Shown: positions 6,561 to 20,092 of the stretch, in pieces
Layout of the letters: each line of letters begins with the position of its first letter
How positions within the stretch are numbered: the stretch's first letter is position 1
NCBI GenBank assembly: GCA_964291405.2
Contig: OZ219926.1
Location: 2,976,001-3,040,000, forward strand
DNA from: Thermodesulfobacteriota bacterium
GTDB taxonomy: Bacteria; Desulfobacterota; Binatia; Bin18
DNA length: 64,000 nt
Direction: 5' to 3'
Position numbers and translations under genes: made by a program
Notes under the pieces: generated by a model
What the model was told of the DNA's origin: nothing
Database searches by the model: none
What the model saw: only the letters and a program-made list of their open reading frames with translations

Positions 6561-7931
6561 ATGAAAAAGTCTCACCTTCTCCTGCGAGCGCTCCCATCCG
6601 TGGAAAAACTGCTGGCAGCGCCGGCGCTTCAGCCCATCCTGGCCCGCTATAACCGAACGTATATCACCGACCTGATTCGTCAGGTCTTGGAGACGCTGCG
6701 TCAGGACATTCTATCCGGCGCACATACCACACCGCTTGCCGAACACGACCTGATCGAGCGCATTACAACCCGACTCCACAGCGAGGACCAGTCCCCGCTG
6801 CGTTCGGTCATCAATGCCACCGGCACGGTGCTGCACACCAACCTGGGGCGCGCCCTGCTGGCCCAGGCGGCCATAGACGAAGTGGTCCGGGCGGCGTCCA
6901 CACCCGTGACGCTCGAATATGACGTGTCTCGGGCCGGTCGCGGCGACCGGGACGATCTGGTCGAGGCCGACCTGACCGCCCTGACCGGCGCGGAAGCGGC
7001 CACAGTGGCGAATAATAACGCGGCCGCGGTGTTATTGGCGCTGAACACGCTGGCGGAAGGGCGGGAAGGGATCGTTTCGCGCGGAGAGCTGATCGAGATC
7101 GGCGGCTCTTTCCGCATCCCCGAGGTCATGCGCAAGAGCGGCGTGGTGCTGCGCGAGGTCGGCACGACCAACCGGACCCATCCGCACGATTATGCCAGCG
7201 CCGTCTCGGATCGGACGGGGGTTCTGCTCAAGGTGCATACCAGCAATTACCGGGTCGTGGGTTTCACCGCCGAGGTTGGCCTGGAAGAACTGGTGGCCCT
7301 GGGTAAGGAGCGTGGTGTCCCGGTCATGGAGGATTTGGGAGCCGGGGCGCTGATCGACCTGGCGCAGTACGGACTGCCACAGGAACCGGTCGTGGCCGAG
7401 CGGGTCGCCAAAGGCGCGGACGTGGTCACCTTTAGCGGCGATAAACTCCTCGGCGGGCCGCAGGCCGGGCTCATTGTGGGCCGCAAAGCCTGGGTGGACC
7501 AGATCAAAAAGAACCCGCTCAAACGGGCGCTACGCCTCGACAAGCTGACGCTGGCGGCCCTGAGCGCGACCCTGCGCCTGTACCGTCGTTCACCCCAATT
7601 GCCCCGCGACCTGCCCACCCTGCGTTGGCTGACCCGGCCGGTGCATGAAATGGAAACTCTGGCGGCCCAGGCCGTTCCGCTTATCCAGCAGGCGCTCGGC
7701 AGCGCATTCTCGCTGAGCGTCGAGCAGGCAACCGCCCAGATCGGCAGTGGGGCGCTGCCGGAGGAGGAACTCCCCAGCACGATCATTGCCGTTCGGCACG
7801 GCGAACTGTCCGCGGAAAAAATCGCCCAGCGTTTCCGGCAGGCCGATACACCCATCCTGGGCCGGATTCACAACGACACGTTCTTGCTCGACCTGCGCGG
7901 TATTTTTGATCCGCAGGACCTTGTTCCGTGA
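6561..7931 (+). CDS. selA: L-seryl-tRNA(Sec) selenium transferase
   Basis: INATGTVLHTNLGRA, SRGELIEIGGSFRIP, FSGDKLLGGPQAG; adjacent tRNA-Sec. Confidence 0.97.
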   Translation: MKKSHLLLRALPSVEKLLAAPALQPILARYNRTYITDLIRQVLETLRQDILSGAHTTPLAEHDLIERITTRLHSEDQSPLRSVINATGTVLHTNLGRALLAQAAIDEVVRAASTPVTLEYDVSRAGRGDRDDLVEADLTALTGAEAATVANNNAAAVLLALNTLAEGREGIVSRGELIEIGGSFRIPEVMRKSGVVLREVGTTNRTHPHDYASAVSDRTGVLLKVHTSNYRVVGFTAEVGLEELVALGKERGVPVMEDLGAGALIDLAQYGLPQEPVVAERVAKGADVVTFSGDKLLGGPQAGLIVGRKAWVDQIKKNPLKRALRLDKLTLAALSATLRLYRRSPQLPRDLPTLRWLTRPVHEMETLAAQAVPLIQQALGSAFSLSVEQATAQIGSGALPEEELPSTIIAVRHGELSAEKIAQRFRQADTPILGRIHNDTFLLDLRGIFDPQDLVP

Positions 7932-8150: not shown

Positions 8151-8245
8151 TGGCGGAGAAGGGATGGAGTCGAACCATCCGCGCAACTTACGCCACGCAA
8201 CTCGGTTTTGAAGACCGGTACGGCCACCGGGCCATATCCTTCCCC
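8151..8245 (-). tRNA. selC: tRNA-Sec (anticodon UCA)
   Basis: Minus strand GGGGAAGG...CCGGTCTTCAAAACCG...long variable arm...GATGGTTCGACTCCATC CCTTCTCC G CCA; 8-bp acceptor stem, 95 nt. Confidence 0.95.
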
Positions 8246-8340: not shown

Positions 8341-8535
8341 CTCTCTCGGGACGTGTGATGCATATCGAGGCGTGAGCCTCCCAGGGACCGGTCCGGCGGT
8401 TCCCACCTTGGGCCGCTCGCCCGCCCGCTGCCTGGGAGCGCGGCCCTCCTGGCCCCCGGTCGCAGACCGGCACGGCGCAGGGGAGCCGGAGGCCGCCGAG
8501 TAATGTAAGTTGCACCATACGTCTGAGGAGGAGAG
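8341..8535. repeat. MITE/REP-like element with imperfect terminal inverted repeats
   Basis: CTCTCTCGGGACGTGTGATGCA...TGCACCATACGTCTGAGGAGGAGAG; ~8341-8455 is the reverse complement of ~46022-46138. Confidence 0.75.
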
Positions 8536-8642
8536 CTTTTTTATCCCCTCCTCGGAGGGGTGGCCCGCAGGGCCGGGGTGGGTCGGGTCCGGTCGACTCA
8601 GCCTCCGTTCTCAAGAGGAGGAAGACAGGGCAGAGTCCGAAA

Positions 8643-8671
8643 TTGACAGACTCACCGGAAGATTTTATAGC
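8643..8671 (+). promoter_or_regulatory. Sigma70 promoter, copy 1
   Basis: TTGACA-17 bp-TATAGC. Confidence 0.7.
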
Positions 8672-8696
8672 GGAGGACTGAAGGGAGAGGGGCGGT

Positions 8697-8984
8697 ATGG
8701 CCGGCCAACCAAATATCCATAAGAAGATGGATAAAATTCTGCAAAAGCTGACGACGCTGGAAGCGAACGACAAGGGACTGGCCAAGCAGACCAACTACCT
8801 GGCGCAACTGGTCGTGCTGGCAAAGCAAGACTCTGCCCGCCAACATTAGGAGTCCCAGACGATTTTGCAGGAGTCCCAGACGATGTTACGGGACATGGGG
8901 CAAATACTCCTGGAAGTCAGAAAAATCTCGGCTCGAACCGAGGAGCGGGTCGCGGAGATACTTGCGGAAACGCGCTGGCACTGA
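8697..8984 (+). pseudogene. Coiled-coil ORF copy 1, interrupted by in-frame TAG (8847-8849)
   Basis: Near-identical to 9926..10246, where codon 51 is CAG; the frame continues to TGA at 8982-8984. Confidence 0.75.
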
Positions 8985-9056
8985 GCCATGATGGATACTC
9001 GTTTGTGAGAAGTGACGGTGAAGGAAATATGAGAGAATTAAGTGGAGAAACAAAAG

Positions 9057-9290
9057 TTACGAGTCTTCTTGTTCACCACCAGAAACGGCATTAGGTCCGC
9101 TAGAGGTTTCAACTTCAATCTTACCTCTTTCGCCCCAATGGAAGATAAATCGGAAATTCTTGTTTTTGAGAACCACGGCGTAGAGAAGTATTCCTACCAC
9201 CGTCCCAATAAAAAAACTGATGAGATCAAATGTGAAACCCGTGGGGAGCAGGCTCTCAAACATCCTATTAGGCAGCCTGCTCTTCCACAA
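9057..9290 (-). CDS. Small single-TM membrane protein
   Basis: Hydrophobic FDLISFFIGTVVGILLYAVVL followed by KNKN; overlaps the RHH gene. Confidence 0.5.
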   Translation of the reverse strand: MWKSRLPNRMFESLLPTGFTFDLISFFIGTVVGILLYAVVLKNKNFRFIFHWGERGKIEVETSSGPNAVSGGEQEDS

Positions 9291-9504
9291 GCGATTCTAG
9301 TTGAGGAAACACCACTTCTACTTGCGAGGAATCATCTCTCTCAAGTATGATTTTGCTCTTCTTTTCGTATTTTTCGTTTGCAAGCCACCGGAGAACACCA
9401 AGAGCGTGGTTGACGACTTCACCCCTAGACTTTGCGTTGAGAATTTCTTTCAACGAGTCTAGCTCTTTCACGGCTGCATCAGAAAATTCAAATTGGATTC
9501 GCAT
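9268..9504 (-). CDS. Ribbon-helix-helix (CopG-like) DNA-binding protein
   Basis: MRIQFEFSDAAVKELDSLKEILNAKSRGEVVNHAL, a classical beta-alpha-alpha pattern. Confidence 0.75.
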   Translation of the reverse strand: MRIQFEFSDAAVKELDSLKEILNAKSRGEVVNHALGVLRWLANEKYEKKSKIILERDDSSQVEVVFPQLESLVEEQAA

Positions 9505-9727
9505 AATTCATATTTCAATCAGAGTCGGCGATAGAGCCAACCCTTGTTTCTTGTTCAATTTTCTCCAAAGGCAGAGTTTCCTTCGGGGCGCGCGGTTTCT
9601 CCTCAATCTCTAGCCGCGTTCCATCAACTTGCCCCCCATCTTCCACATGGTTTTCTTGTTCCACTACATAACCTCCCCGTTATTCTGCCATACATTGTGT
9701 GTCCCTCCTTTCGCTGAGTACTTCTGA

Positions 9728-9791
9728 ATAGTACTAATAAGAGAGTTTATTGTCAATTAAGCACAATATTTATTCTCATAAAACTCTCTTA
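9728..9791 (-). promoter_or_regulatory. Sigma70 promoter with inverted-repeat operator
   Basis: Minus strand TTGACA(9756-9751)-17 bp-TACTAT(9733-9728); 11-bp inverted repeat TAAGAGAGTTT (9738-9748) / AAACTCTCTTA (9781-9791). Confidence 0.7.
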
Positions 9792-9871
9792 ATACTCCCC
9801 CTCAGGCAGACATAACAGTTCAGCGGGTTGGAACAGCGGCCTATCACAGGAAGACGGGGCGGTGTCCGAAA

Positions 9872-9900
9872 TTGACAGACTCACCGGAAGATTTTATAGC
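9872..9900 (+). promoter_or_regulatory. Sigma70 promoter, copy 2 (likely also drives the dnd operon)
   Basis: TTGACA-17 bp-TATAGC, identical to 8643-8671. Confidence 0.7.
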
Positions 9901-9925
9901 GGAGGACTGAAGGGAGAGGGGCGGT

Positions 9926-10246
9926 ATGGCCGGCCAACCAAATATCCATAAGAAGATGGATAAAATTCTGCAAAAGCTGACGACGCTGGAAGCGAACGAC
10001 AAGGGACTGGCCAAGCAGACCAACTACCTGGCGCAACTGGTCGTGCTAGCCAAGCAGGACTCTGCCCGCCAACATCAGGAGTCCCAGACGCTGTTGCACG
10101 ACATGGGGCAAATGCTCTTGGAAGTCAGAAAATCCTCGGTCCAGACTGAGTCGATGGTACACGATGTGGGGCAAATGCTCTTGGAAGTCAGAAAAATCTC
10201 ATCTCGAACCGAGGGGAGATACTCGCGGAAACGCGCAGGGGTGTAG
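9926..10246 (+). CDS. Coiled-coil hypothetical protein, copy 2
   Basis: Heptad-like sequence with internal repeat HD(M/V)GQMLLEVRK x2; GGAG RBS; 3' end frameshifted relative to copy 1. Confidence 0.6.
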   Translation: MAGQPNIHKKMDKILQKLTTLEANDKGLAKQTNYLAQLVVLAKQDSARQHQESQTLLHDMGQMLLEVRKSSVQTESMVHDVGQMLLEVRKISSRTEGRYSRKRAGV

Positions 10247-10328: not shown

Positions 10329-11621
10329 ATGGACATGAACACATACGAAGATATTAAGAGCGCGTTACGACAGCTCTACCTAGAGGACGACCGGCCTTGG
10401 CTTGTGGGGTTTAGTGGAGGGAAGGACAGCACCATGCTCGCCTCGCTCATCTTCGAGACTGTCCTTTCGTTTCCAATAGAAAGACGAACAAAACCCATCT
10501 CCGTCCTTTGCACAGATACCCGAGTCGAAATCCCTGCCATTGTTGAAATGGTCGAAGGAACCCTGGAGAAGATGCGCAAGTGTTCGGAAAAGAACAACAT
10601 GCGTATAGATGTCAATCTCCTTCGCCCTCCCGCTGACCAGTCATTTTGGGTCAACATTATTGGGCGTGGGTATCCTCCGCCGAATCGTGTCTTTCGCTGG
10701 TGCACACAGCGCATGAAGATTGATCCGGTTACTACCTTTGTTCAGCAACGTCTCGGTCATTGGGGCGAGGCAATTCTCCACCTTGGTGCACGACGTGCCG
10801 AGAGTAGCAGCCGGGCGCAGACAATGGCGGGCCGTGAATCACGAAACGGACTTCATCGTCACCCGAACTTGCCTCGGGTGTGGGTGTCCAATCCAATCGA
10901 GTTTCTGAGTACGGACGAGGTATGGACCTATTTATTGCAAAATCCGAATCCATGGGGGACAAACAATCGCTCTTTGTTTGCGCTCTATGCACGAAGCGGC
11001 GACTGTCCGATCCAAATTGACACGAGTACCCCGAGCTGCGGCAAGAGCCGGTTCGGCTGTTGGACCTGTACGGTTGTCGAGCGTGATAAGGCAAGCGAAG
11101 GCTTACTTGCGAGTGGTGACGAACGTATGGAAGACCTGATCGAATTCAGGGAGACGCTTATACGCTATCGTGACCCGGAGAACGGAAAGCGAGACATGAA
11201 GCGGATGAACGGAAGCGATGGCCCTGGTCCGCTTACTATGACTGCTCGTCGTGAATTGTTGACCCAACTCCTCAAATTACAGGAGCAGACCGGCCTGAAA
11301 GTTATCAGCGAGGATGAATTGTTTCTTATTCAAAAGCATTGGAAAGCCGCCCGTCAACCCGATGATGGCGGTGGTGTAGGACGCATTGTCACTCGTCAGA
11401 GAGGAATCATCATGAAGGACTGGAAGGAAGTAAACCAGTTGCGGGACCTGGAGGAGGAGGTCGTAGCTGAGAAAGGCATCCGTGCAGATACCTTACGGCG
11501 TCTGCTTGCAAAAGTTGAAGAATACAGCGAGCGCCATCGTGCCTATGGCTTACCGGATGATATGCTGAACATCCTGAAAGACGATATGGAGCACGAAAAG
11601 GAAGCGCTCGAAGATGCCTGA
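10329..11621 (+). CDS. dndC: DNA phosphorothioation sulfurtransferase DndC (PAPS-reductase family)
   Basis: PP-loop SGGKDS, GRGYPPPNRVFRWCT, Cys cluster CPIQ...SCGKSRFGCWTCTVV. Confidence 0.93.
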   Translation: MDMNTYEDIKSALRQLYLEDDRPWLVGFSGGKDSTMLASLIFETVLSFPIERRTKPISVLCTDTRVEIPAIVEMVEGTLEKMRKCSEKNNMRIDVNLLRPPADQSFWVNIIGRGYPPPNRVFRWCTQRMKIDPVTTFVQQRLGHWGEAILHLGARRAESSSRAQTMAGRESRNGLHRHPNLPRVWVSNPIEFLSTDEVWTYLLQNPNPWGTNNRSLFALYARSGDCPIQIDTSTPSCGKSRFGCWTCTVVERDKASEGLLASGDERMEDLIEFRETLIRYRDPENGKRDMKRMNGSDGPGPLTMTARRELLTQLLKLQEQTGLKVISEDELFLIQKHWKAARQPDDGGGVGRIVTRQRGIIMKDWKEVNQLRDLEEEVVAEKGIRADTLRRLLAKVEEYSERHRAYGLPDDMLNILKDDMEHEKEALEDA

Positions 11622-13677
11622 CGTCTATATTGACGAACTCACGCTGGAGAATTTCGGCCCTTATTATGGTGAGCACACTTTCAATTTCGGCACAGTAGAG
11701 GACCGTTGTGGCATTCTTATCGGTGGTAAGAATGGCGCAGGAAAAACGCACTTACTCCGGGCGCTGTATCTCGCAGTCGTCGGAGAAGCTGGCGTTGGGG
11801 ATCTCAAAAAAGTAGAGCCGGCCTCCGAAGCGACACGGTTTATATTTGAGAGGTCGCTGAACCGGCGGGCTCAAGCAGAAGGTAAAGATACCGTTCGGCT
11901 TCAAGTCAAGATTTCCCAAATCGGTGAGACAGGCGGTGGGAGTCGAAAGGCCGTACTGGTTAGGGAGATTCGTCACCGACCATCCGGACCAAAATGGTCC
12001 TCCTATGCAGACCGCATGGACGGGTCTGGGCGAATTGAAGAGGAAAAGCACTTATCCAAACTCCGAGATACACTCCTTCCTCGGCATTTGGCTCGATTTT
12101 TTTTCTTCGACGCGGAGCGGGGTCAAAATTTCAACCTGGGGCAACAGGAAATCGTTGAAGGTATTAGCCGCATATTGGGGCTATGGTCTTACGACGAACT
12201 TGAAACCGACTTGCGCAATCTGATTCAGAATAAAATTCCGCGTGTGTTCAATGCTTCCGGGGAATATGAAGCGGCACAGAAACTTGCCGATATATCTGGA
12301 CAGATCGTCACGACAGAGAAGAAGCTCATCGCCCTGAAGGACGAGTTAAAAAGCACTGAACTTGAGCTGTCTGAAAACCAAACGGAACTCGATGAAGTGG
12401 AGGAGCAGCTCAAGAGCATTGGAGCTGTTGACCCTCAAGAATTAAATCGAGCACAGGCAGCTCGAACGGAGTTGGCGGAAACCAAGGCTAAGCTCGAAAC
12501 CGAGCTAACATCGGCATGGGAACAAGCCATGCCAGTAGCCCTGATGGGGGGCTACCGTAATGAACTGCACAATGACCTTATTCGAGAAGAGAAACGTAGA
12601 GAATGGGAGAGTAGTCGGGCGACAGTTGAGCCAAAGATTCCTCAGGTAAAGCAAGATGTTTTTGAGAAAGTGCCATCTGAGTACCGATTAGCGGACGATG
12701 TTTGCGCCTTCTATGCTGATCGTTTAGAGCACGCCCTCCATCGTTTATTTCACCCACCACCTGAAGGAATGGCAGAAAGCATCTTTATAACAGACCGCAA
12801 TGACCGGAGTGCTCAGATTCGAGACCGGTTGAAGACTGGAACAAATTCTTTACCGGGTGTCACAGAGCTATGTGAACAAGTGGAATCTATTGACGCGGAT
12901 CTACGGGAAATTGATGGAAGAATCAGACAACTTAAGCAAGACACCGGAACGATGGAACTTGGGGCAGAGCTTCATAAGCGGCGCGGAGAGTTGACAACAC
13001 AGTACGGTCATTTGGAGAACAAAAAGAAAGAGATAGAACAACGGATCGTGACACTTGAAGGCGATCTTCAGGAGCAGAAACGTGAGGAGACAAACCTGAC
13101 GAACTTGGCGACAAAAGCACGGCAGGGTAAAAACCTGACTGCATTAGCGGCGTCTTATCGTGAGGCGACAAAAGAGATCCGCGTTCGTGCCGCTGAACAG
13201 CTTCGGCGGAGAATTTCCGAGTATGTTGGAGAATTGTGGACAGAAATCACGGAACGCCAGCGAGAATTCTTGGGAATGGAATTTGATAAGAACTGGAACT
13301 GCTTGCTGCTCGGCCGCAACGGCGAAAAGTTGTCCTGGGAAGGAGCGAATACATCAGCCGGTCAGCGACAGGTACGTATGTTAGCCTTTTACGAGGCACT
13401 TCGCCGCCTGGCGAAGGTCGCACCGCCATTAGTCGTTGATACTCCCCTGGGCCGCCTCGATAAGGAAGTCAAAGATAGTGTGCTTGATAGACTGTATTTA
13501 ACAGGACACCAGACTATCTTTCTGACTACGAATTCAGAAGTTGATCCTAGTGGGCCTTTGTTTGAAAGGCTTCGAGGCAGATTTGGACGCATGTATACCT
13601 TGCACCCATACGGTCAAGAGGACAGCGATAACTATGAAGTACGCGTAACTAACGACTACTTCGGGAGTAGGCCATGA
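11614..13677 (+). CDS. dndD: DNA sulfur modification SMC-like ATPase DndD
   Basis: LENFGPYYG, Walker A GKNGAGKT, FFFFDAE, long coiled coil, signature SAGQRQ, Walker B VVDTPLGRLD. Confidence 0.92.
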   Translation: MPDVYIDELTLENFGPYYGEHTFNFGTVEDRCGILIGGKNGAGKTHLLRALYLAVVGEAGVGDLKKVEPASEATRFIFERSLNRRAQAEGKDTVRLQVKISQIGETGGGSRKAVLVREIRHRPSGPKWSSYADRMDGSGRIEEEKHLSKLRDTLLPRHLARFFFFDAERGQNFNLGQQEIVEGISRILGLWSYDELETDLRNLIQNKIPRVFNASGEYEAAQKLADISGQIVTTEKKLIALKDELKSTELELSENQTELDEVEEQLKSIGAVDPQELNRAQAARTELAETKAKLETELTSAWEQAMPVALMGGYRNELHNDLIREEKRREWESSRATVEPKIPQVKQDVFEKVPSEYRLADDVCAFYADRLEHALHRLFHPPPEGMAESIFITDRNDRSAQIRDRLKTGTNSLPGVTELCEQVESIDADLREIDGRIRQLKQDTGTMELGAELHKRRGELTTQYGHLENKKKEIEQRIVTLEGDLQEQKREETNLTNLATKARQGKNLTALAASYREATKEIRVRAAEQLRRRISEYVGELWTEITERQREFLGMEFDKNWNCLLLGRNGEKLSWEGANTSAGQRQVRMLAFYEALRRLAKVAPPLVVDTPLGRLDKEVKDSVLDRLYLTGHQTIFLTTNSEVDPSGPLFERLRGRFGRMYTLHPYGQEDSDNYEVRVTNDYFGSRP

Positions 13678-15230
13678 GGTTTAAGCCGAGCCTTGCTACT
13701 GAGGAATTTATAGAAAAAGTTCACCAACAAGTTGGAGCACGCAACAAAGCCGTTTTAGGCCGTTCGGCTCTTTTTCTGGCTCTTGGGGAGGGCGTTCGGC
13801 CTGGTTTTAAGCCTGAGAATTCTCAAGGAAAAGACCTTGATGATGAAATCGTGATTAACGATGAACTGCGCGATGTTGTGCGGGCAGCACTCAATCATCG
13901 TGCAGGAAAAACATTGAGCGAGAGTGAGTATCGCAGATCATTCCGGAAACATTTTGAATATGGCTGTCAACGATTAAAAGAAATCTGGGAGGAGTCGAGA
14001 AACGATCAGACACGCTTTGTCGCCGCTCTACTCAAAATTACCAGCCCTGACTTTGGTGAGAGTCGGAAAACTCACGTTACACCCACACCCGTAGTAGAGC
14101 AAATAGTAGAGCAAGAGGTTAAACTAAAGGTATTGGCTGAGACTCCTGAATGGAGCATCAATGGTCCAGGTACGAAGAACGGGCTTCTCGTCATTTCCGG
14201 TGAACCAGGTTCAGGCAAGAGCCAACTTGCTCTTGATCTCCTCGCCCAGTTGTCCAGTCAGGGGGTGCGTTTTGTTTTCTTCGACCTTAAAGGCGAATTA
14301 GAAGACGACCCGAATAATCCTCAGCAGCGCAAGAATCGGACACAATTCTTACAACAGACCGGAGCACACCACATACGGCTCATTCAGCAAAGCTTACCCA
14401 TCAATCCACTCTACCGCTCCCCAGACCCGACTCGAAACGCTCAGATTGCCTATGAGATTGCCGGTTTAATTCGCTGCTTCGCGCGCCAACTCGGTGCGAA
14501 ACAAGAGCGGAGTATTAGCGATACATATCAGCAACTTCCGACTCCTGACTTCTCATCTCTCGCCCTCCAACTTGAGCAAAATGGTTCAGAGGGCGTAGAT
14601 TTAGCCATCATACAAAAGATCAATCGACTCAACATATTTGCCAATGCCTCAAGTTCGCTTGGTCTTGAGGAAGGACTCAATAATTCAGCCGTTAGAAACT
14701 TACTCAACCAGGAAAAGACGACCATCAGTCTGGAGGAGTGGCTCAACAGTTCAATAGTGATTGACTTCAAAGACATGGGGAACGATAGCGAAACCAAGGC
14801 ATTGATTGTCGCACTTATCTTGAATTTCCTAATGAAGCATCTGAATCAGAATCTTGCCGTGAAGAATAACATCCAACCTATCAAAATGGTGCTTTTTGTG
14901 GACGAGGCTCATCTTTTGCTGCCAAAAGAAGGCAGGGCAGGTTTACTCGGTTCCCTTGCGCGTCAGGGTCGTTCATGGGGATTCCCGGTGTGGCTCGCCT
15001 CTCAGGACGCCGATGCTTTTGTGACAACGGGCGATCACGCGACCAACTTTGCTGAGCTTGCGGAGTGCGGAGTACACTTTTCGCCGCATACGCTAAGTGA
15101 TGCACAGCAGAGGAAAGTGCTTGGGGGAGTCATTCGTCGCGAATTGAAAAAGGCTGAAGCTGCTTTACGTTTGCAAGGCAACCTTACAGTGGCGTCGGCG
15201 AGGCAGTTTTGGAAGGATCAAGGCAGTTAG
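13674..15230 (+). CDS. dndE: DndE domain fused to HerA/FtsK-like ATPase (DndEi-type)
   Basis: N-terminal ~120 aa DndE-like (NKAVLGRSALFLAL); C-terminal GEPGSGKS, FFDLKGE, LFVDEAH, RQGRSWG; ATGA overlap with dndD. Confidence 0.8.
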   Translation: MRFKPSLATEEFIEKVHQQVGARNKAVLGRSALFLALGEGVRPGFKPENSQGKDLDDEIVINDELRDVVRAALNHRAGKTLSESEYRRSFRKHFEYGCQRLKEIWEESRNDQTRFVAALLKITSPDFGESRKTHVTPTPVVEQIVEQEVKLKVLAETPEWSINGPGTKNGLLVISGEPGSGKSQLALDLLAQLSSQGVRFVFFDLKGELEDDPNNPQQRKNRTQFLQQTGAHHIRLIQQSLPINPLYRSPDPTRNAQIAYEIAGLIRCFARQLGAKQERSISDTYQQLPTPDFSSLALQLEQNGSEGVDLAIIQKINRLNIFANASSSLGLEEGLNNSAVRNLLNQEKTTISLEEWLNSSIVIDFKDMGNDSETKALIVALILNFLMKHLNQNLAVKNNIQPIKMVLFVDEAHLLLPKEGRAGLLGSLARQGRSWGFPVWLASQDADAFVTTGDHATNFAELAECGVHFSPHTLSDAQQRKVLGGVIRRELKKAEAALRLQGNLTVASARQFWKDQGS

Positions 15231-15232
15231 CT

Positions 15233-16303
15233 ATGGCTAAGAAACCTCAATCAGAGAAATTTTTAGATTCCATACCCGCCCTTGAGGTCTTACAGGGTGA
15301 GACGACTTTCTACTTATTTGCAATTTCAGCAAAGAAACTTCTTCGAATAGCTTACACTTCCGAGAGGACCCAGTATAACCGAGAAGGAATTCAGCGTGGC
15401 CTACGTCCCGACCGCCTTAGAGATATTGGTAAATTTCTCACTGCAAACGGCTCAAATCCACCGCTCCTGCCCAACGCCATAATCATCAGCCTTAGTTCAA
15501 AGAGTTATTACAAAGATGGTCGCCTTCATATTCGCGAATGTCCTTCCGGGGAAGCGTTCGTCATTGATGGCCAACATCGTCTCTGGGCGTTCGATCCACA
15601 ATATTCAGGAGAAGCCGACCTTGATGTCGTCGTAACCGCCTTCATAGATCTTGACGACTCCGGTAAGGCATCCATCTTTCGGTCTATCAACGGGAATCAG
15701 AGAAAAATCAATCCTTCGCTAGTCTATGATCTCATTCCGATGTTGCGCAACCAGGAAACGGTAGCCTTCGAAGACAGGAGATGCCGAGACCTCGTTGCGC
15801 TTCTTAATGAAGAGACTCCTGACTCTCCATGGAAGAATCGTATTAGTATGGTGGGTGGTGGGAACCGCATAATAAGTCAGTCGTCGTTTATTTCCGCGCT
15901 CAAAAAACTCTTTAAGAAAGATCACCTTTTCGCCAGTAAAAACTCAGACTTCTTTGAGCAACGTATTCAGCATGACCTCTTACTTGAATATTTCAAAGCA
16001 ATTCAAAGTTCATATTCTGTTCAATGGGACAATAAGGCATTCTTTCTGTGCAAATATGTTGGAGTATCTGCGTTACTGAATCTCCTTGAACGTATTATTG
16101 CGGATCTCAAAGAAAATGGCATACCTGTTAGCGATAAGAACGGACTCTGCATAGACAAAATGACCTTCGCACCATACGTAAAAAAACTGAAACAATTCTC
16201 TTTCAGTACCGCTGAGGAGAAGGAAAAAGGTATCACTTACGTAGGCGAGGGTGGAATTCGTGAACTAACTAAGCGGGTGATTTCTCTCGTATTTCCCTCC
16301 TGA
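15233..16303 (+). CDS. DGQHR-domain protein (DndB/ParB-Srx superfamily)
   Basis: IQRGL...PNAIII...VIDGQHRL...FRSINGNQRKINPSLVYDL. Confidence 0.9.
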   Translation: MAKKPQSEKFLDSIPALEVLQGETTFYLFAISAKKLLRIAYTSERTQYNREGIQRGLRPDRLRDIGKFLTANGSNPPLLPNAIIISLSSKSYYKDGRLHIRECPSGEAFVIDGQHRLWAFDPQYSGEADLDVVVTAFIDLDDSGKASIFRSINGNQRKINPSLVYDLIPMLRNQETVAFEDRRCRDLVALLNEETPDSPWKNRISMVGGGNRIISQSSFISALKKLFKKDHLFASKNSDFFEQRIQHDLLLEYFKAIQSSYSVQWDNKAFFLCKYVGVSALLNLLERIIADLKENGIPVSDKNGLCIDKMTFAPYVKKLKQFSFSTAEEKEKGITYVGEGGIRELTKRVISLVFPS

Positions 16304-16304
16304 T

Positions 16305-17291
16305 ATGACCACAGTAATTGCTTCTCATTCACCTGATACTAAATCTATGCTGAGTCACACTTGGCTTCTGGACGACCAGAAGGTGGCTCTCGTATCTGCA
16401 CCATTCGCAGCAAATAGGACATCCGTCTCTGCTCATCTTAGTGGTTGGCTAGTAGAGAATAATTACCAGGATGACGTGAAGAAGAGTGGCCTCTATATTG
16501 AAGACCCCCAAATTACTGTCTGCCTCATGAATCAAGCGTTGGAGTTTCTTCAGAGAGCCATGGGGAACACCGTGGCCCATTATGTGCTCGCAAAGAAGGG
16601 CCTAGAAACATGGGCGCGCGTCACGAATTACTATGCGGGCTATTTCTCTGTTTGTGGCTTGCTTTGTCTTCAGGGGCGAACGATTACAAGGCTATCGCTA
16701 GATAAATCGCCAGATAAAAAGACTACAGTTCAGGTAGTGCCTGTTAATTTACACGGTCATATTTTTGGCATAACGCCCTTTGTGCCGAAGAAGTCCCAAC
16801 ACGAAGTCCCATGGAATCGATTCTATGATATCTATGACCGCTACGCAGTCTCGCACCAAGCTTACGAGATTGTCGCGAGGAGGGCGCATACTACTGAGCC
16901 AGCCGATGAGTCCATCGAAAGGAACTCGATTAACTACACACCATTTGTTGGCTTTAACGAGATCCAGGACTTAAATCGCCGTCAAGGGTTCACAAACCTT
17001 TTCGAAGAATACCTATCCACCCTAGAAGGAAAGACTACCCTAGAAGCATTTCTAGTTGATCTTCAAGGCTACGCGACAGACACAGACTGCAAATATTTTG
17101 CCAGAACCTTACTGAGGTTAGCGCTCGCTGGAGATATTCTATTGGCACTCCGGGAAGTTAGTAATGCTTTAGAAGGAGCGTGGGCTTCCATGACGAGAAA
17201 ATGGGAGAGCTTCTTAAGTACGATATTCGCTGAAATAGATAATTGCTACTTGCTACGCTTCGTTCCCCTTATTGGGACTAGCCCGAACTGA
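16305..17291 (+). CDS. Uncharacterised protein with HEPN-like motifs
   Basis: WARVTNYYAGYFS (HEPN N-terminal YYAxF-like helix), KKSQHE, ERNSINY (R-x4-Y); starts 1 nt after the DGQHR stop. Confidence 0.55.
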   Translation: MTTVIASHSPDTKSMLSHTWLLDDQKVALVSAPFAANRTSVSAHLSGWLVENNYQDDVKKSGLYIEDPQITVCLMNQALEFLQRAMGNTVAHYVLAKKGLETWARVTNYYAGYFSVCGLLCLQGRTITRLSLDKSPDKKTTVQVVPVNLHGHIFGITPFVPKKSQHEVPWNRFYDIYDRYAVSHQAYEIVARRAHTTEPADESIERNSINYTPFVGFNEIQDLNRRQGFTNLFEEYLSTLEGKTTLEAFLVDLQGYATDTDCKYFARTLLRLALAGDILLALREVSNALEGAWASMTRKWESFLSTIFAEIDNCYLLRFVPLIGTSPN

Positions 17292-17412
17292 GTCCTGCCA
17301 CTAGTGAACCTGATGAAGCTTCCTCGGGTCACAGGTCTCAAACCTTTCTATCTCTAATCGGACATTATTGATCCCGCTTGGGTAATATTCTTGGTGACAG
17401 AGGGAAGTTAGG

Positions 17413-17694
17413 ATGAAGCTCGATGTCGTTGACGCCTGTTTTATCGGGGTAGCAGCCCGGTCACATGGAAAAATCCAAGCCGGAGAGGGGTTGGTGAGCA
17501 AAATGCTCGTGGAATGTGATGAGCAGGGCGTAGCACTCCCCGACCCGGAGGAAAAAGCGCTGTACCGGATTTGTAGAGATGGAGAGGACGCCTCTCCACT
17601 GACAGAAGCGATGACGCTCGAAGCGCATCAGGCACTCATCAACCTTTTGCTGAGAGGTCGGGAAGGGATAGGGGGGAAGTTGGCTGAGCTATGA
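17413..17694 (+). CDS. Hypothetical protein, paralog of 19148..19411
   Basis: High similarity to 19148..19411 (ACFIG.A.RSHGK.QAGE.LVS.MLVECDE...LYRICRD). Confidence 0.55.
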   Translation: MKLDVVDACFIGVAARSHGKIQAGEGLVSKMLVECDEQGVALPDPEEKALYRICRDGEDASPLTEAMTLEAHQALINLLLRGREGIGGKLAEL

Positions 17695-17710
17695 AAATCG
17701 GTAAATCCGG

Positions 17711-18919
17711 TCATGCTTTCAGCCAGTCCCCAACGGGTTTCAACAGGAATGCCTCAAGGTCGATGCCGTCGCCCCCGACGAGCAGCTTACGCGTGGGTCG
17801 AAACGCCTCGGAAAAGGCCGCCATGCCCGCCAGCGTATCAACCGCGCGCCCGCTCTTGACCTCAATAGCAACCAGGCTGTTGCCGGCACGGACGACGAAA
17901 TCCACCTCACGGTTACGCTCACGCCAGTAATAGGCTTGGCACTCACCTACGGCCGCGGCGTTGGCCAGATGCGCGCCAACCGCGGACTCGACCAGGCGTC
18001 CCCAAAAGGCAGGGTCTTGGCGGGCCTGCCTGAGTGTCATGCCGGCCTGGGCCGTGATCAGAGCAGTGTTGAAGACCTGGAGCTTGGGGCTCGACGCCCG
18101 CCGCCGCGCTACGCCTCCGGCGTATTTTTGCAGGCCGGTGACCAGACCCGCACCGGACAAGAGGTCGAGGTAATGGGCCAAGGTGGTCGCGTTGCCGGCA
18201 TCTTGGAGCTGGCCGAGCATCTTGGTGTAGGACAGAATCTGTCCGGAGTAGGCGCAGCTCAGTTCAAGCAGTCTGCGTAGCAAAGCCGGCTTGTCGACGC
18301 GAGAGAGGAGCAGCACGTCGCGGGAGATGACAGGTTCAATAAGCGCGTCGCGGACGTAGCGCGCCCAGCGGACCGGCTGTCGGATGAGCGGGGCCGCGCC
18401 GGGATACGCACCGTAGAAGAGGTAGTGCTCCAGAGACCAGCCAAATGTCTGTTGCATTTCGGCAAGGCTCCAGTGCGGCAGACGCACCATCTCGAAACGT
18501 CCGGCCAGGCTCTCGCTCAGGCCGCGCTCGACCAGGAGTGGCGCCGAGCCGAGCAAAACGACCTTGAGCGGACGGCCTATGCGAGTGTCAGCATCCCACA
18601 GGTGCTTCACCGTCTCCGACCAGCCCGTGACCTTCTGCACCTCGTCGAGAACCAGGAGCGCCCCGTCCGTATCTGCCGCATCGGTGAGACTCCGCGCGGC
18701 CTCCCACTGCTGTTCAATCCACTGGACGCCGCGTAAAGTCGGCTCGTCCGCACTGGCATAGCGGGTCGGCAGGCCGGACTGCCTTGCGGCCTGCCCCGCC
18801 AGCGTCGTCTTGCCGACCTGCCGGGCACCGGCAACGACCTGGATAAAACGACGCGGCTCCAGCAGCCGGCTGGTCAACTCTTTGGCCTGGAGACGAGTAT
18901 AGCCGGACAATTTGCTCAT
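17711..18919 (-). CDS. AAA+ ATPase, AAA_14/DUF4143 family with C-terminal PD-(D/E)xK-like domain
   Basis: GARQVGKT, LDEVQK, SESLAGR, REVDFV...AIEVKSG. Confidence 0.9.
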   Translation of the reverse strand: MSKLSGYTRLQAKELTSRLLEPRRFIQVVAGARQVGKTTLAGQAARQSGLPTRYASADEPTLRGVQWIEQQWEAARSLTDAADTDGALLVLDEVQKVTGWSETVKHLWDADTRIGRPLKVVLLGSAPLLVERGLSESLAGRFEMVRLPHWSLAEMQQTFGWSLEHYLFYGAYPGAAPLIRQPVRWARYVRDALIEPVISRDVLLLSRVDKPALLRRLLELSCAYSGQILSYTKMLGQLQDAGNATTLAHYLDLLSGAGLVTGLQKYAGGVARRRASSPKLQVFNTALITAQAGMTLRQARQDPAFWGRLVESAVGAHLANAAAVGECQAYYWRERNREVDFVVRAGNSLVAIEVKSGRAVDTLAGMAAFSEAFRPTRKLLVGGDGIDLEAFLLKPVGDWLKA

Positions 18920-18924
18920 GATAC

Positions 18925-18958
18925 TGAGTAATTTTACTCAAGAGAATGAGTAGGTCAA
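18925..18958 (-). promoter_or_regulatory. Promoter with overlapping palindromic operator for the AAA ATPase gene
   Basis: TTGACC-16 bp-TAAAAT on minus strand; palindrome TGAGTAA-TT-TTACTCA at 18925-18940. Confidence 0.55.
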
Positions 18959-19147
18959 GGCTGTCGAAAGTACCAGGGAATCAATGAGCGGTTTGACGGT
19001 TTCGCCGGTCTGCTGGATAATCTCTTGATTCCTGTCCAGAAATACAGCGTTAGACAATATCCAGGAAGCAATCGCTGCCTGTCTGGAGAGCTTACGAGAT
19101 GAAGGATCACCTCTTCCGGCAGACGTGATAGAATAGGGGGAGGTAGG

Positions 19148-19411
19148 ATGAAGCTTGAGGCCTGTTTTATCGGGATAGCTACCCGGTCACACGGAAAAGT
19201 CCAAGCCGGAGAGGAGTTGGTGAGCGAAATGCTCGTGGAATGTGATGAGCATGGCGGAACACTCCCCGCTCCAGAGGAAACAGTGTTATACCGTATTTGC
19301 AGAGATGATGGGGAGGACGCCTCTCCACTTACGGAAGTGATGACACTTGAAGCGCACCGAGCACTTATCAGGCTTTTGCTGAGAGAAAAGGAAGGCCAAA
19401 ACTGCAAATAA
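19148..19411 (+). CDS. Hypothetical protein, paralog of 17413..17694
   Basis: GGAGG RBS; paralogy visible at DNA and protein level. Confidence 0.55.
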   Translation: MKLEACFIGIATRSHGKVQAGEELVSEMLVECDEHGGTLPAPEETVLYRICRDDGEDASPLTEVMTLEAHRALIRLLLREKEGQNCK

Positions 19412-19626
19412 AGCACCCCGATGGTTCAATAAGTTATTGATTTTATTGAATTCAGGTCTGAGACCCCCCCCTATATAGTTTTTCTTTGTTTGTTAGAGAG
19501 TAACGGTGTTTTATATATGAATATCCTTCCATCAGCCCCTCAGCTTGGATAAATCTCCCTCACTCTGTTGATTAACGCCCGGAAGTATCCGGTAGTGTCC
19601 GGTGAATTACCGGATATTGCCGGACA

Positions 19627-19894
19627 CTAGAGCGTTCCACGATAAGTTGTAGCCACGCTATTCCGCGCTCGTCATGTCGGACCCCGGATCATGTCCGTGG
19701 CAGGCTTTGATCCGGCATCCATGCTTCGACTCCGCCCTTCCGGGCTATGCCCTTCGACGGGGCTCAGGATAGACTCAGCACAAACGGCCTTGCGTTCGCC
19801 CTGAGCGGAGCGAAGTCGAAGGGCCTATCCGGTGGCGGCGAGCCTGCCTGCGCAGGAATGACGGAGGGCTGCACAGCATTGTGATTTGCCCTAG
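19627..19894. mobile_element. MITE-like element bounded by CTAG, carrying CCCTTCGAC/GCTCAG-type REP hairpins
   Basis: Ends CTAGAGCGTTCCAC... and ...GTGATTTGCCCTAG; both ends match, in reverse orientation, the ends of 45949..46226. Confidence 0.65.
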
Positions 19895-20092
19895 GGCGTA
19901 AAACGCTCTCGCCTCGGGATCACACAAACCCTTGTCCGCCCACATGAAACACGGTAGAACTCAGGCCAGGAGCGGCTCGAAGGGAGAGTGTGGAGAGACG
20001 GAGGTTCCTTTTTACGGGGGAAGTATCCCCCGAGTCCCCTCCTCCGTTTTTCTTTTGGGGATAGCGCCGCTCCGGGCAGTGCGAGGCAAGAC

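Follow-up and report, generated by a model that had tools for sequence, protein, structure and literature searches.

DNA phosphorothioate (PT) modification is the work of the Dnd proteins, of which purified DndCDE is reported to be sufficient for the reaction (PMC10853773), and close to half of the dnd clusters covered by a review of the field are without DndFGH; the present work bears on what restricts, if anything, in such "solitary" dnd systems. Makarova et al. 2013 observe that DUF262/DGQHR family members often occur fused to nucleases of the HNH, PD-(D/E)xK or HEPN type, and suggest that the family may serve modification systems as an attached cell-death module. Anantharaman et al. 2013 suggest that HEPN genes associated with restriction-modification act as guards in the manner of PrrC, HEPN is one of the nucleases that Krishnan et al. 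2024 record in Dnd neighborhoods, and the ProPhylo work (2011) reports an additional DGQHR protein that occurs only in genomes with PT. The locus described here lies in a 64,000-nucleotide (nt) stretch of a Thermodesulfobacteriota genome (Binatia; contig OZ219926.1 of assembly GCA_964291405.2, positions 2,976,001 to 3,040,000), hereafter the window, where five genes at 10329..17291 make up a DndEi-type PT modification cassette and, after it, an accessory module of two obligately associated genes, one for a DGQHR protein (gene 4) and one for a divergent HEPN-like protein (gene 5). The interpretation that we favor, tentatively, is that this pair acts as the effector arm in a system that uses modification to tell self from non-self. 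The initial annotation of the region had called it a previously undescribed effector, a description that is too strong, since ParB-like plus HEPN modules at modification systems and the PrrC-like guard reading were both published in 2013 and HEPN in Dnd neighborhoods in 2024. What the module newly delineates is one protein family within the known theme of ParB-superfamily plus HEPN proteins; the DGQHR and gene-5 pair itself was not found described in the literature searched, which did not extend to the supplements of PMC10853773 and PMC3710099.

All five open reading frames (ORFs) are encoded on the forward strand, in the order dndC (10329-11621, 430 amino acids, aa), dndD (11614-13677, 687 aa), dndEi, a fusion of dndE with a HerA/FtsK ATPase (13674-15230, 518 aa), the DGQHR gene (15233-16303, 356 aa counted from the ATG, with the longest ORF beginning upstream, at a TTG at 15209) and gene 5 (16305-17291, 328 aa). 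Genes 1 and 2 overlap by 8 nt and genes 2 and 3 by 4 nt, whereas gaps of 2 nt and 1 nt precede genes 4 and 5, respectively. GC content is 0.52, 0.50, 0.49, 0.44 and 0.47 for genes 1 to 5 as against 0.59-0.60 in the flanks, the DGQHR/gene-5 pair being richer in AT than dndCDEi. The initial annotation was thus accurate in describing an AT-richer island of five co-oriented genes that overlap or are spaced by 1-2 nt, and the names it gave to the first four (dndC, dndD, dndE plus ATPase, DGQHR) likewise hold on the evidence given below. A scan of the region for promoters and terminators returned fewer sites than in shuffled sequence and was uninformative.

The product of dndC scores 369.6 bits against TIGR03183 (cut-off 290.4), matches the DndC model of PADLOC (1.1e-122) and Pfam PAPS_reduct, and has a PP-loop, SGGKDS, at residue 29, features that identify it as the predicted PP-loop ATPase/sulfurtransferase of PT modification; the genome has no DndC match beyond this gene. 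The second protein is aligned over its full length by the PADLOC DndD model (4.6e-66), with the PbeC models nearly as good, and reaches 190.3 bits against TIGR03185, under the cut-off of 245.85. It has a Walker A motif (GKNGAGKT at residue 38) and no CxC Zn-hook and therefore appears to fall outside the CxC/PbeC clade; its sequence suggests an SMC-like ABC ATPase of the DndD type. In the third protein, a DndE domain (Pfam DndE, 31.7 bits, cut-off 25, residues 2-103) precedes an ATPase region with a Walker A motif (GEPGSGKS) at residue 176, which matches PADLOC mad8 (1.2e-19) and the C-terminus of DndH (4.6e-16) and scores just below the cut-off for HerA_C (20.9 against 22 bits). This is the composition of the published DndEi type, a DndE fused to a HerA/FtsK-class P-loop ATPase. 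Fusions of HerA/FtsK domains to DndE adjoining a DndD-related ATPase are noted by Krishnan et al. 2024, and according to a review the helicase and ATPase activity of the extra DndEi domain is required for PT in Riemerella. In four related loci (L005, L006, L008, L009) a conserved ORF of about 80 aa without a Pfam match lies between dndD and dndEi (for example L008 7187-7429); it is absent in the window, where the two genes overlap.

Gene 4 encodes a DGQHR-domain protein as defined by TIGR03187 (129.2 bits, cut-off 58.85). The three signatures of this domain given by Machnicka et al., the QR pair, DGQHR and FxxxN, correspond to Q54/R55, D112-G-Q-H-R116 and F149/N153, all of them invariant in 22 homologues. 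The AlphaFold model of the protein (pLDDT 85.7) consists of a ParB/Srx N-domain, approximately residues 17-175, and a helical C-domain, 176-356, that has no clear fold match. Foldseek related the model to ParB bound to CTPγS (E 8.3e-4), and the VIA-align search to PadC (Z 7.8), pNOB8 ParB (6.9), KorB (6.3), sulfiredoxin (5.4) and SspE (4.0), similarities that are compatible with a predicted role as a DNA sensor with a ParB/Srx fold that binds nucleoside triphosphates (NTP).

Two other interpretations of the pair take characterized DGQHR proteins as their starting point. According to one, a serious rival although we consider it less likely, the pair would serve regulation, as a DndB that has been split or elaborated and that limits or times modification, by methylases as well, through binding of promoters or other DNA or through use of NTP. 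DndB, a DGQHR protein, binds the dnd promoter, and without it PT is twice as frequent, as summarized in a review; Makarova et al. 2013 describe it as a ParB-like domain fused to HEPN, so that ParB plus HEPN can be the architecture of a regulator, and gene 4 does match Pfam DndB, with 43 bits (cut-off 29.1), over its N-terminal half. Set against these resemblances, the protein scores 103.5 bits with TIGR04172 ("DNA phosphorothioation-associated DGQHR protein 1"), far under the cut-off of 450 and over residues 22-176 only, and its C-domain has no HEPN-like match, there being no HEPN among the fold matches of the whole model. According to the other interpretation, which appears improbable, the pair would be an accessory of the modification reaction, with an NTPase and its partner loading or targeting the modifying enzyme and helping to set site specificity, in the manner of DpdB, a DGQHR ParB-like ATPase that reportedly drives the DpdA reaction in which preQ0 is inserted into DNA (PMC12839542). 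DpdB is indeed the sole PADLOC match of gene 4 (2.6e-28), at a level (97.3 bits against NF041060) that is under the model cut-off of 300.

Gene 5 belongs to a family that goes undetected by the present models of Pfam, NCBIfam and PADLOC. The protein itself has no match in any of the three, 21 of its close relatives gave nothing meaningful against Pfam even at E <= 10, and a profile search of the PDB with its sequence returned chance-level matches only. The protein has 116 relatives at E <= 0.001 in a library of 1.84 billion representatives and 77 at the 90%-cluster level, every one of which is unnamed or "hypothetical". Viral contigs of IMG/VR, scanned with the alignment of more distant gene-5 relatives described below (A4), contained 60 pattern matches and no relatives.

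The structural model of gene 5 is confidently predicted (pLDDT 89, pTM 0.91) and includes an N-terminal extension of about 65 residues and a three-stranded insert. In an exhaustive VIA-align comparison the seven best chains were all HEPN proteins, covered nearly completely, with Z scores from 6.8 to 8.9, a range in which, as for any Z below about 13, helical bundles may match by chance. The best of them, 2hsb_A, has 124 of its 126 residues aligned (Z 8.9, root-mean-square deviation 3.2), and it is followed by 4nqf_B (8.4), 1ufb (7.7), 2jpu (7.6), 1wol (7.5), the HEPN domain of sacsin (7.4) and an AMPylated HEPN toxin (6.8), with Csm6, HepS and AbiV (5.5) lower in the list. Weak sequence signals point in the same direction: PF05168 appears below threshold (E 0.005-0.035) in 6 of 70 distant relatives, and the nearest named Atlas cluster is 20% HEPN_AbiV (score 0.78).

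Among 33 gene-5 sequences, which diverge down to 15% identity, four residues never vary: Y109, H166, R206 and Y211. Two of them delimit the pattern R206-N-x-x-N-Y211 (here R206-N-S-I-N-Y211, within the ERNSINY of residues 205-211), which ends the helix 200-211, and H166 lies in the strand-rich insert between this helix and the helix 101-122. The canonical HEPN motif, R-x4-6-H, is described by Anantharaman et al. 2013 as located at the end of HEPN helix 3; gene 5 departs from it in that the arginine and the polar residue at +1 are kept and position +5 is the invariant tyrosine. According to the same authors, AbiV and AF0298 (2hsb) lack the motif histidine and instead have a conserved histidine in an insert between helices 2 and 3. 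The layout of Arg206 and the insert residue His166 is the same, and we therefore infer that gene 5 is a HEPN-superfamily protein with an alternative active site, for which these two residues are the candidates. The earlier guess of a HEPN-like protein is accordingly supported by the fold matches and by the weak PF05168 signals, and falls short at the catalytic histidine, which is a tyrosine. Membership in HEPN_MAE_28990 was considered and rejected: PF18737, which matched in 7 of 401 sampled genomes, has no match in the source genome, and hhalign of the gene-5 alignment against six members gave a probability of 0.1%, indicating that gene 5 is a parallel, unmodeled version of a known theme and not a MAE_28990 protein. 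A structure prediction for the complex of the DGQHR protein with gene 5 (score 0.02, mark 0.32) weighs neither way.

The association of the two genes was first examined in a survey of one genome per species (185,579 species) by tblastn and clustering, which located gene-5 relatives at 13 loci, all of them with dnd or pbe genes. A lack of linkage to dnd genes, named beforehand as refuting the effector proposal, is therefore not what these loci show. All 12 loci that can be assessed have a co-directional DGQHR gene upstream, adjacent in 11 and with one ORF between in the other, and the DGQHR and gene-5 reading frames often overlap at stop and start. The metagenome-assembled genomes (MAGs) concerned are labeled as Binatia, Terriglobia, Blastocatellia, Nitrospirales, Chromatiales, Syntrophaceae, Deltaproteobacteria and Rokubacteria. 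Seven loci (L003, L005, L006, L008-L011) have the full order dndC-dndD-dndEi-DGQHR-gene 5, four (L004, L007, L013, L014) have the same order cut or decayed, one (L002) is cut at a contig edge, and in one (L012) it is PbeA, PbeC and an AIPR/AbiU-like gene that precede the DGQHR gene and gene 5.

Some of these loci have peculiarities of their own. In L012, from a Rokubacteria MAG, the upstream genes are PbeA, PbeC, a 136-aa ORF and the AIPR/AbiU-like gene, and between DGQHR and gene 5 there is a 544-aa ORF (8352-9986) without a family match, the end of which, some 64 residues long, is 47% identical to the DGQHR C-terminal tail, as though the DGQHR gene had received an insertion. Three copies look decayed: in L007 (4136-5322) dndC is followed by a 1.2-kb gap without detectable dndD or dndEi and then by the DGQHR gene and a gene 5 with a divergent C-terminus; in L013, on a contig of a MAG labeled Klebsiella pneumoniae that is odd among the environmental phyla, only a 91-residue dndD match is left; and in L014 the DGQHR and gene-5 matches are split.

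More distant relatives extend this picture beyond phosphorothioation. A metagenome scan that included them (alignment A4) yielded 23 loci. With three cut loci (L044, L048, L051) left out of the adjacency count, local hidden Markov models placed a DGQHR gene immediately before the gene-5 homologue in 19 of the 20 that can be assessed; with the genome survey included, an upstream DGQHR gene on the same strand is present in 31 of 32. The neighbors are DNA methyltransferases in 14 loci: a D12-class (Dam-like) enzyme in five (L033, L034, L047, L049, L050), an N6_N4 methyltransferase in seven (L035-L039, L044, L054) and an N6_N4 methyltransferase together with a DpnII endonuclease in two (L052, L055). 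Four others have dnd genes in other arrangements (L042/L043, with the order dndC-DGQHR-gene 5-dndD-dndEi, L045 and L053), one (L040) duplicates L038 and four (L041, L046, L048, L051) are too short to judge. The pair is thus a portable unit that is not specific to PT, unlike the PT-linked effector proposed in the initial annotation. In L046, a 2.1-kb contig, the gene-5 relative (917-2134), extended at its N-terminus by about 150 residues, is next to an SPFH/Band_7 fragment.

These neighborhoods bear on whether the pair has anything to do with modification at all. It might be an independent selfish or toxin-antitoxin-like element that occupies the same variable islands without functional coupling, an interpretation to which we assign very little likelihood. 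The GC content of the pair is low relative to dndCDEi, integrases and toxin-antitoxin genes lie near some relatives, and the module is swapped between congeners, as detailed below. A mere cohabitant would, on the other hand, hardly be expected to have a modification gene adjoining it at each of the 13 genome loci and at every one of the 18 metagenome loci with sufficient flanking sequence, mostly co-directional with it and with reading frames that abut or overlap. Nor is chance co-location expected to place the PT-linked pairs in one well-supported clade, which is what the phylogeny recovers.

Trees were built from 25 complete pairs, the partial, frameshifted and duplicate ones being omitted (L002, L004, L007, L013, L014, L040, L041, L043, L044, L046, L048, L051). 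The DGQHR and gene-5 trees are concordant in their main clades, and in both the 12 PT- or Pbe-linked pairs are on one side of a single branch, with support of 100/100 for gene 5 and 99/99 for DGQHR, which implies one change between methylase-linked and PT-linked pairs per tree. Pairwise identities of the two proteins are correlated (r = 0.87, 300 pairs), as is expected for co-inherited genes anyway. That the clades of the pair track the type of modification would suit an accessory of the modification reaction as well. Dam-like D12 and N4/N6 methyltransferases, however, normally act alone, the same dndC-dndD-dndEi genes occur in the two genomes discussed next without gene 5, and purified DndCDE is, as already noted, reported to be enough for PT (PMC10853773).

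DndEi is present in 3 of the 401 genomes sampled in the phylum (G000, G110 and G152), and comparison among them shows where the cassette varies. In G110, which is of the same genus, dndC-dndD-dndEi occupy the syntenic site with 74% DNA identity, and no DNA match to window 15085-20089 is found there; the operon has at its end, instead, a hydrophobic ORF of 172 aa and the gene for a DGQHR protein of 414 aa (L063/L069), which is a true TIGR04172 member (470.6 bits, cut-off 450), and there is no gene-5 homologue. The G152 cassette (L071), with the same dndC-dndD-dndEi genes, closes with a 261-aa ORF and the gene for yet a third kind of DGQHR protein, of 430 aa, beside which lies a dndA-like gene in convergent orientation; neither the 172-aa nor the 261-aa ORF has an NCBIfam match. 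The variable part of DndEi cassettes is the attached DGQHR-plus-partner module. A terminal DGQHR gene is, moreover, normal for this cassette type, and its position after dndE, which had been taken as a departure from the canonical order, is shared by the other two cassettes in the phylum, one of them with a TIGR04172 protein.

For the regulatory alternative this comparison is two-sided. The TIGR04172 protein at the same operon end in G110, and the strict adjacency to modification genes, fit a regulator as well as they fit an effector. The presence of three different DGQHR-plus-partner modules behind near-identical dndC-dndD-dndEi operons is more like diversifying defense cargo. The control proteins of methylase systems are small, whereas the present pair comprises two proteins and about 680 residues, with invariant residues that look catalytic.

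The source genome, which is 97.5% complete, was also searched for the parts that the operon lacks. None of its 15 Aminotran_5 matches is within the window (C3:2976001-3040000), as the initial annotation had stated for dndA, and two NifS/IscS-like genes elsewhere have 42-44% identity to the DndA of a relative's locus; the sulfur for the cassette must come from a cysteine desulfurase whose gene is at another genomic site. In 9 of the 13 genome loci a convergent cysteine desulfurase gene is located downstream of gene 5, an arrangement not seen in the window; it was recognized by Pfam Aminotran_5 at four loci and, at one, by PADLOC as DndA (9.1e-145). The models for dndF, dndG and dndH (TIGR03236, TIGR03237, TIGR03238) have no match in the genome, which is weak evidence of absence because they matched in no control genome either. 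The PbeC model finds only the dndD of the operon and two marginal places, and neither a DUF262 gene nor a second pbeC was found. With this qualification for dndFGH, the proposed lack of known effectors extends from the window to the whole genome, which by these model searches appears to encode neither a complete Dnd defense system (dndABCDE plus dndFGH) nor Dnd-Pbe.

Taken together, these data are compatible with the pair being the effector arm of a modification-based self/non-self system, the interpretation that we consider tenable and prefer, short of an even chance. Depending on NTP, the DGQHR protein would sense DNA or the state of its modification and would license or restrain the HEPN-like nuclease, gene 5, the pair as a whole being the possible split counterpart of SspE/GmrSD and of the DUF262 plus HEPN_MAE_28990 pairs. 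Binding between the two proteins, nuclease activity, sensing of modification and a defense phenotype would all be expected under such a mechanism. The mobile or defense genes in the surroundings of relatives, which include integrase, AbiEii, Schlafen-AlbA2, PIN, HepT-MNT and relaxase genes, would suit such a role. A more general version, which we regard as speculative and rather doubtful, is that the pair is a hitherto unrecognized plug-in, two-protein "R arm" that can be coupled to any DNA-marking enzyme (PT, Dam-like N6-adenine or N4/N6 methylation), with one clade specialized for PT; the NTPase would search DNA for the mark, and restriction or abortive infection would be carried out at the Arg/His/Tyr site.

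Several points weigh against an effector. The closest characterized DGQHR protein, DndB, is described as a negative regulator of PT levels (a review; PMC4507180). As to the second gene, RNase activity is uncertain because the histidine of the HEPN motif is replaced by tyrosine, Foldseek found no match of the model in the PDB at E <= 0.001, the VIA-align scores are of the size already cautioned against, and PADLOC 2.0 has no model for the family. One metagenome locus, L046, has no DGQHR gene in the 916 nt upstream of the gene-5 relative, and the two methylase-linked loci with DpnII (L052, L055) already possess a restriction enzyme. Finally, the counts overstate independence, since L038/L040, L042/L043 and L047-L051 are close relatives or duplicates. 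The pair is of interest beyond the single locus: it accompanies genes for three kinds of modification chemistry, genomes of one genus differ in whether they carry it or another module, and it is a candidate alternative effector or general governor of modification.

A tRNA-SeC gene (window 8151-8245, reverse strand) lies between selA (6561-7931, forward strand) and the AT-rich island, and the same gene (93% identity) flanks the syntenic dnd cassette of G110, so that the island occupies the tRNA-SeC site in both genomes. Between this tRNA gene and dndC there is a direct repeat of approximately 360 nt (8619-8978 and 9848-10239; 254 nt at 96% identity plus weaker extensions) enclosing an AT-rich stretch of about 870 nt with two small reverse-strand ORFs (9057-9290, 9268-9504). 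The second copy holds a 106-aa ORF (9926-10246) that in the first copy, judged by eye, is seemingly shortened by a stop; the structure (8619-10239) could be a small insertion or duplication. Downstream of gene 5, two repeats that are 82-86% identical (17402-17666 and 19137-19395), each with a small ORF (17413-17694; 19148-19411), flank a reverse-strand gene for an ATPase with AAA_14 and DUF4143 (17711-18919). This gene matches the PADLOC candidate PDC-S01 (2.3e-172), and its homologue in G110 (79% identity) is located elsewhere in that genome.

Among known systems, the modification genes are closest to the DndEi-type clusters of Riemerella, Flavobacterium and Kordia, which likewise have a DndE N-domain joined to a P-loop ATPase beside a DndD-type ABC ATPase and DndC. 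Gene 4 shares with DndB and TIGR04172 proteins the DGQHR ParB/Srx domain, the QR, DGQHR and FxxxN motifs and the encoding in dnd operons; the similarity is confined to the N-terminal half, and it is gene 4, not the canonical dndB or the G110 gene, that is followed by gene 5. Gene 5, in turn, resembles AbiV and AF0298 in that 2hsb is its best fold match, the motif arginine is kept, the motif histidine is absent and a histidine in the insert is conserved, and differs from them in its far larger size and in having no detectable sequence relationship to them. With PrrC of EcoprrI, the analogy drawn in the initial annotation, the locus has in common a HEPN-family protein attached to a DNA modification or restriction system, whereas no restriction enzyme is the partner here and gene 5 has neither an ABC ATPase domain nor the canonical motif. 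The pairs of DUF262 (GmrSD_N) and HEPN_MAE_28990 provide the nearest parallel in gene order, a ParB-superfamily gene followed by a HEPN gene in the company of methylases or restriction enzymes: a GmrSD_N/DUF262 gene was upstream in all five HEPN_MAE_28990 cases checked, with XhoI adjoining in two. The families are nevertheless different on both sides, and MAE_28990 keeps the canonical R-x4-H that gene 5 does not. SspE, which senses PT, and GmrSD/BrxU are likewise built from a ParB/Srx NTPase coupled to a nuclease-type domain in modification-based defense, and their DGQQR motif is related to DGQHR. What distinguishes the present module, as seen in sequence and models, is its division into two separate proteins, the second of which is HEPN-like and not HNH.

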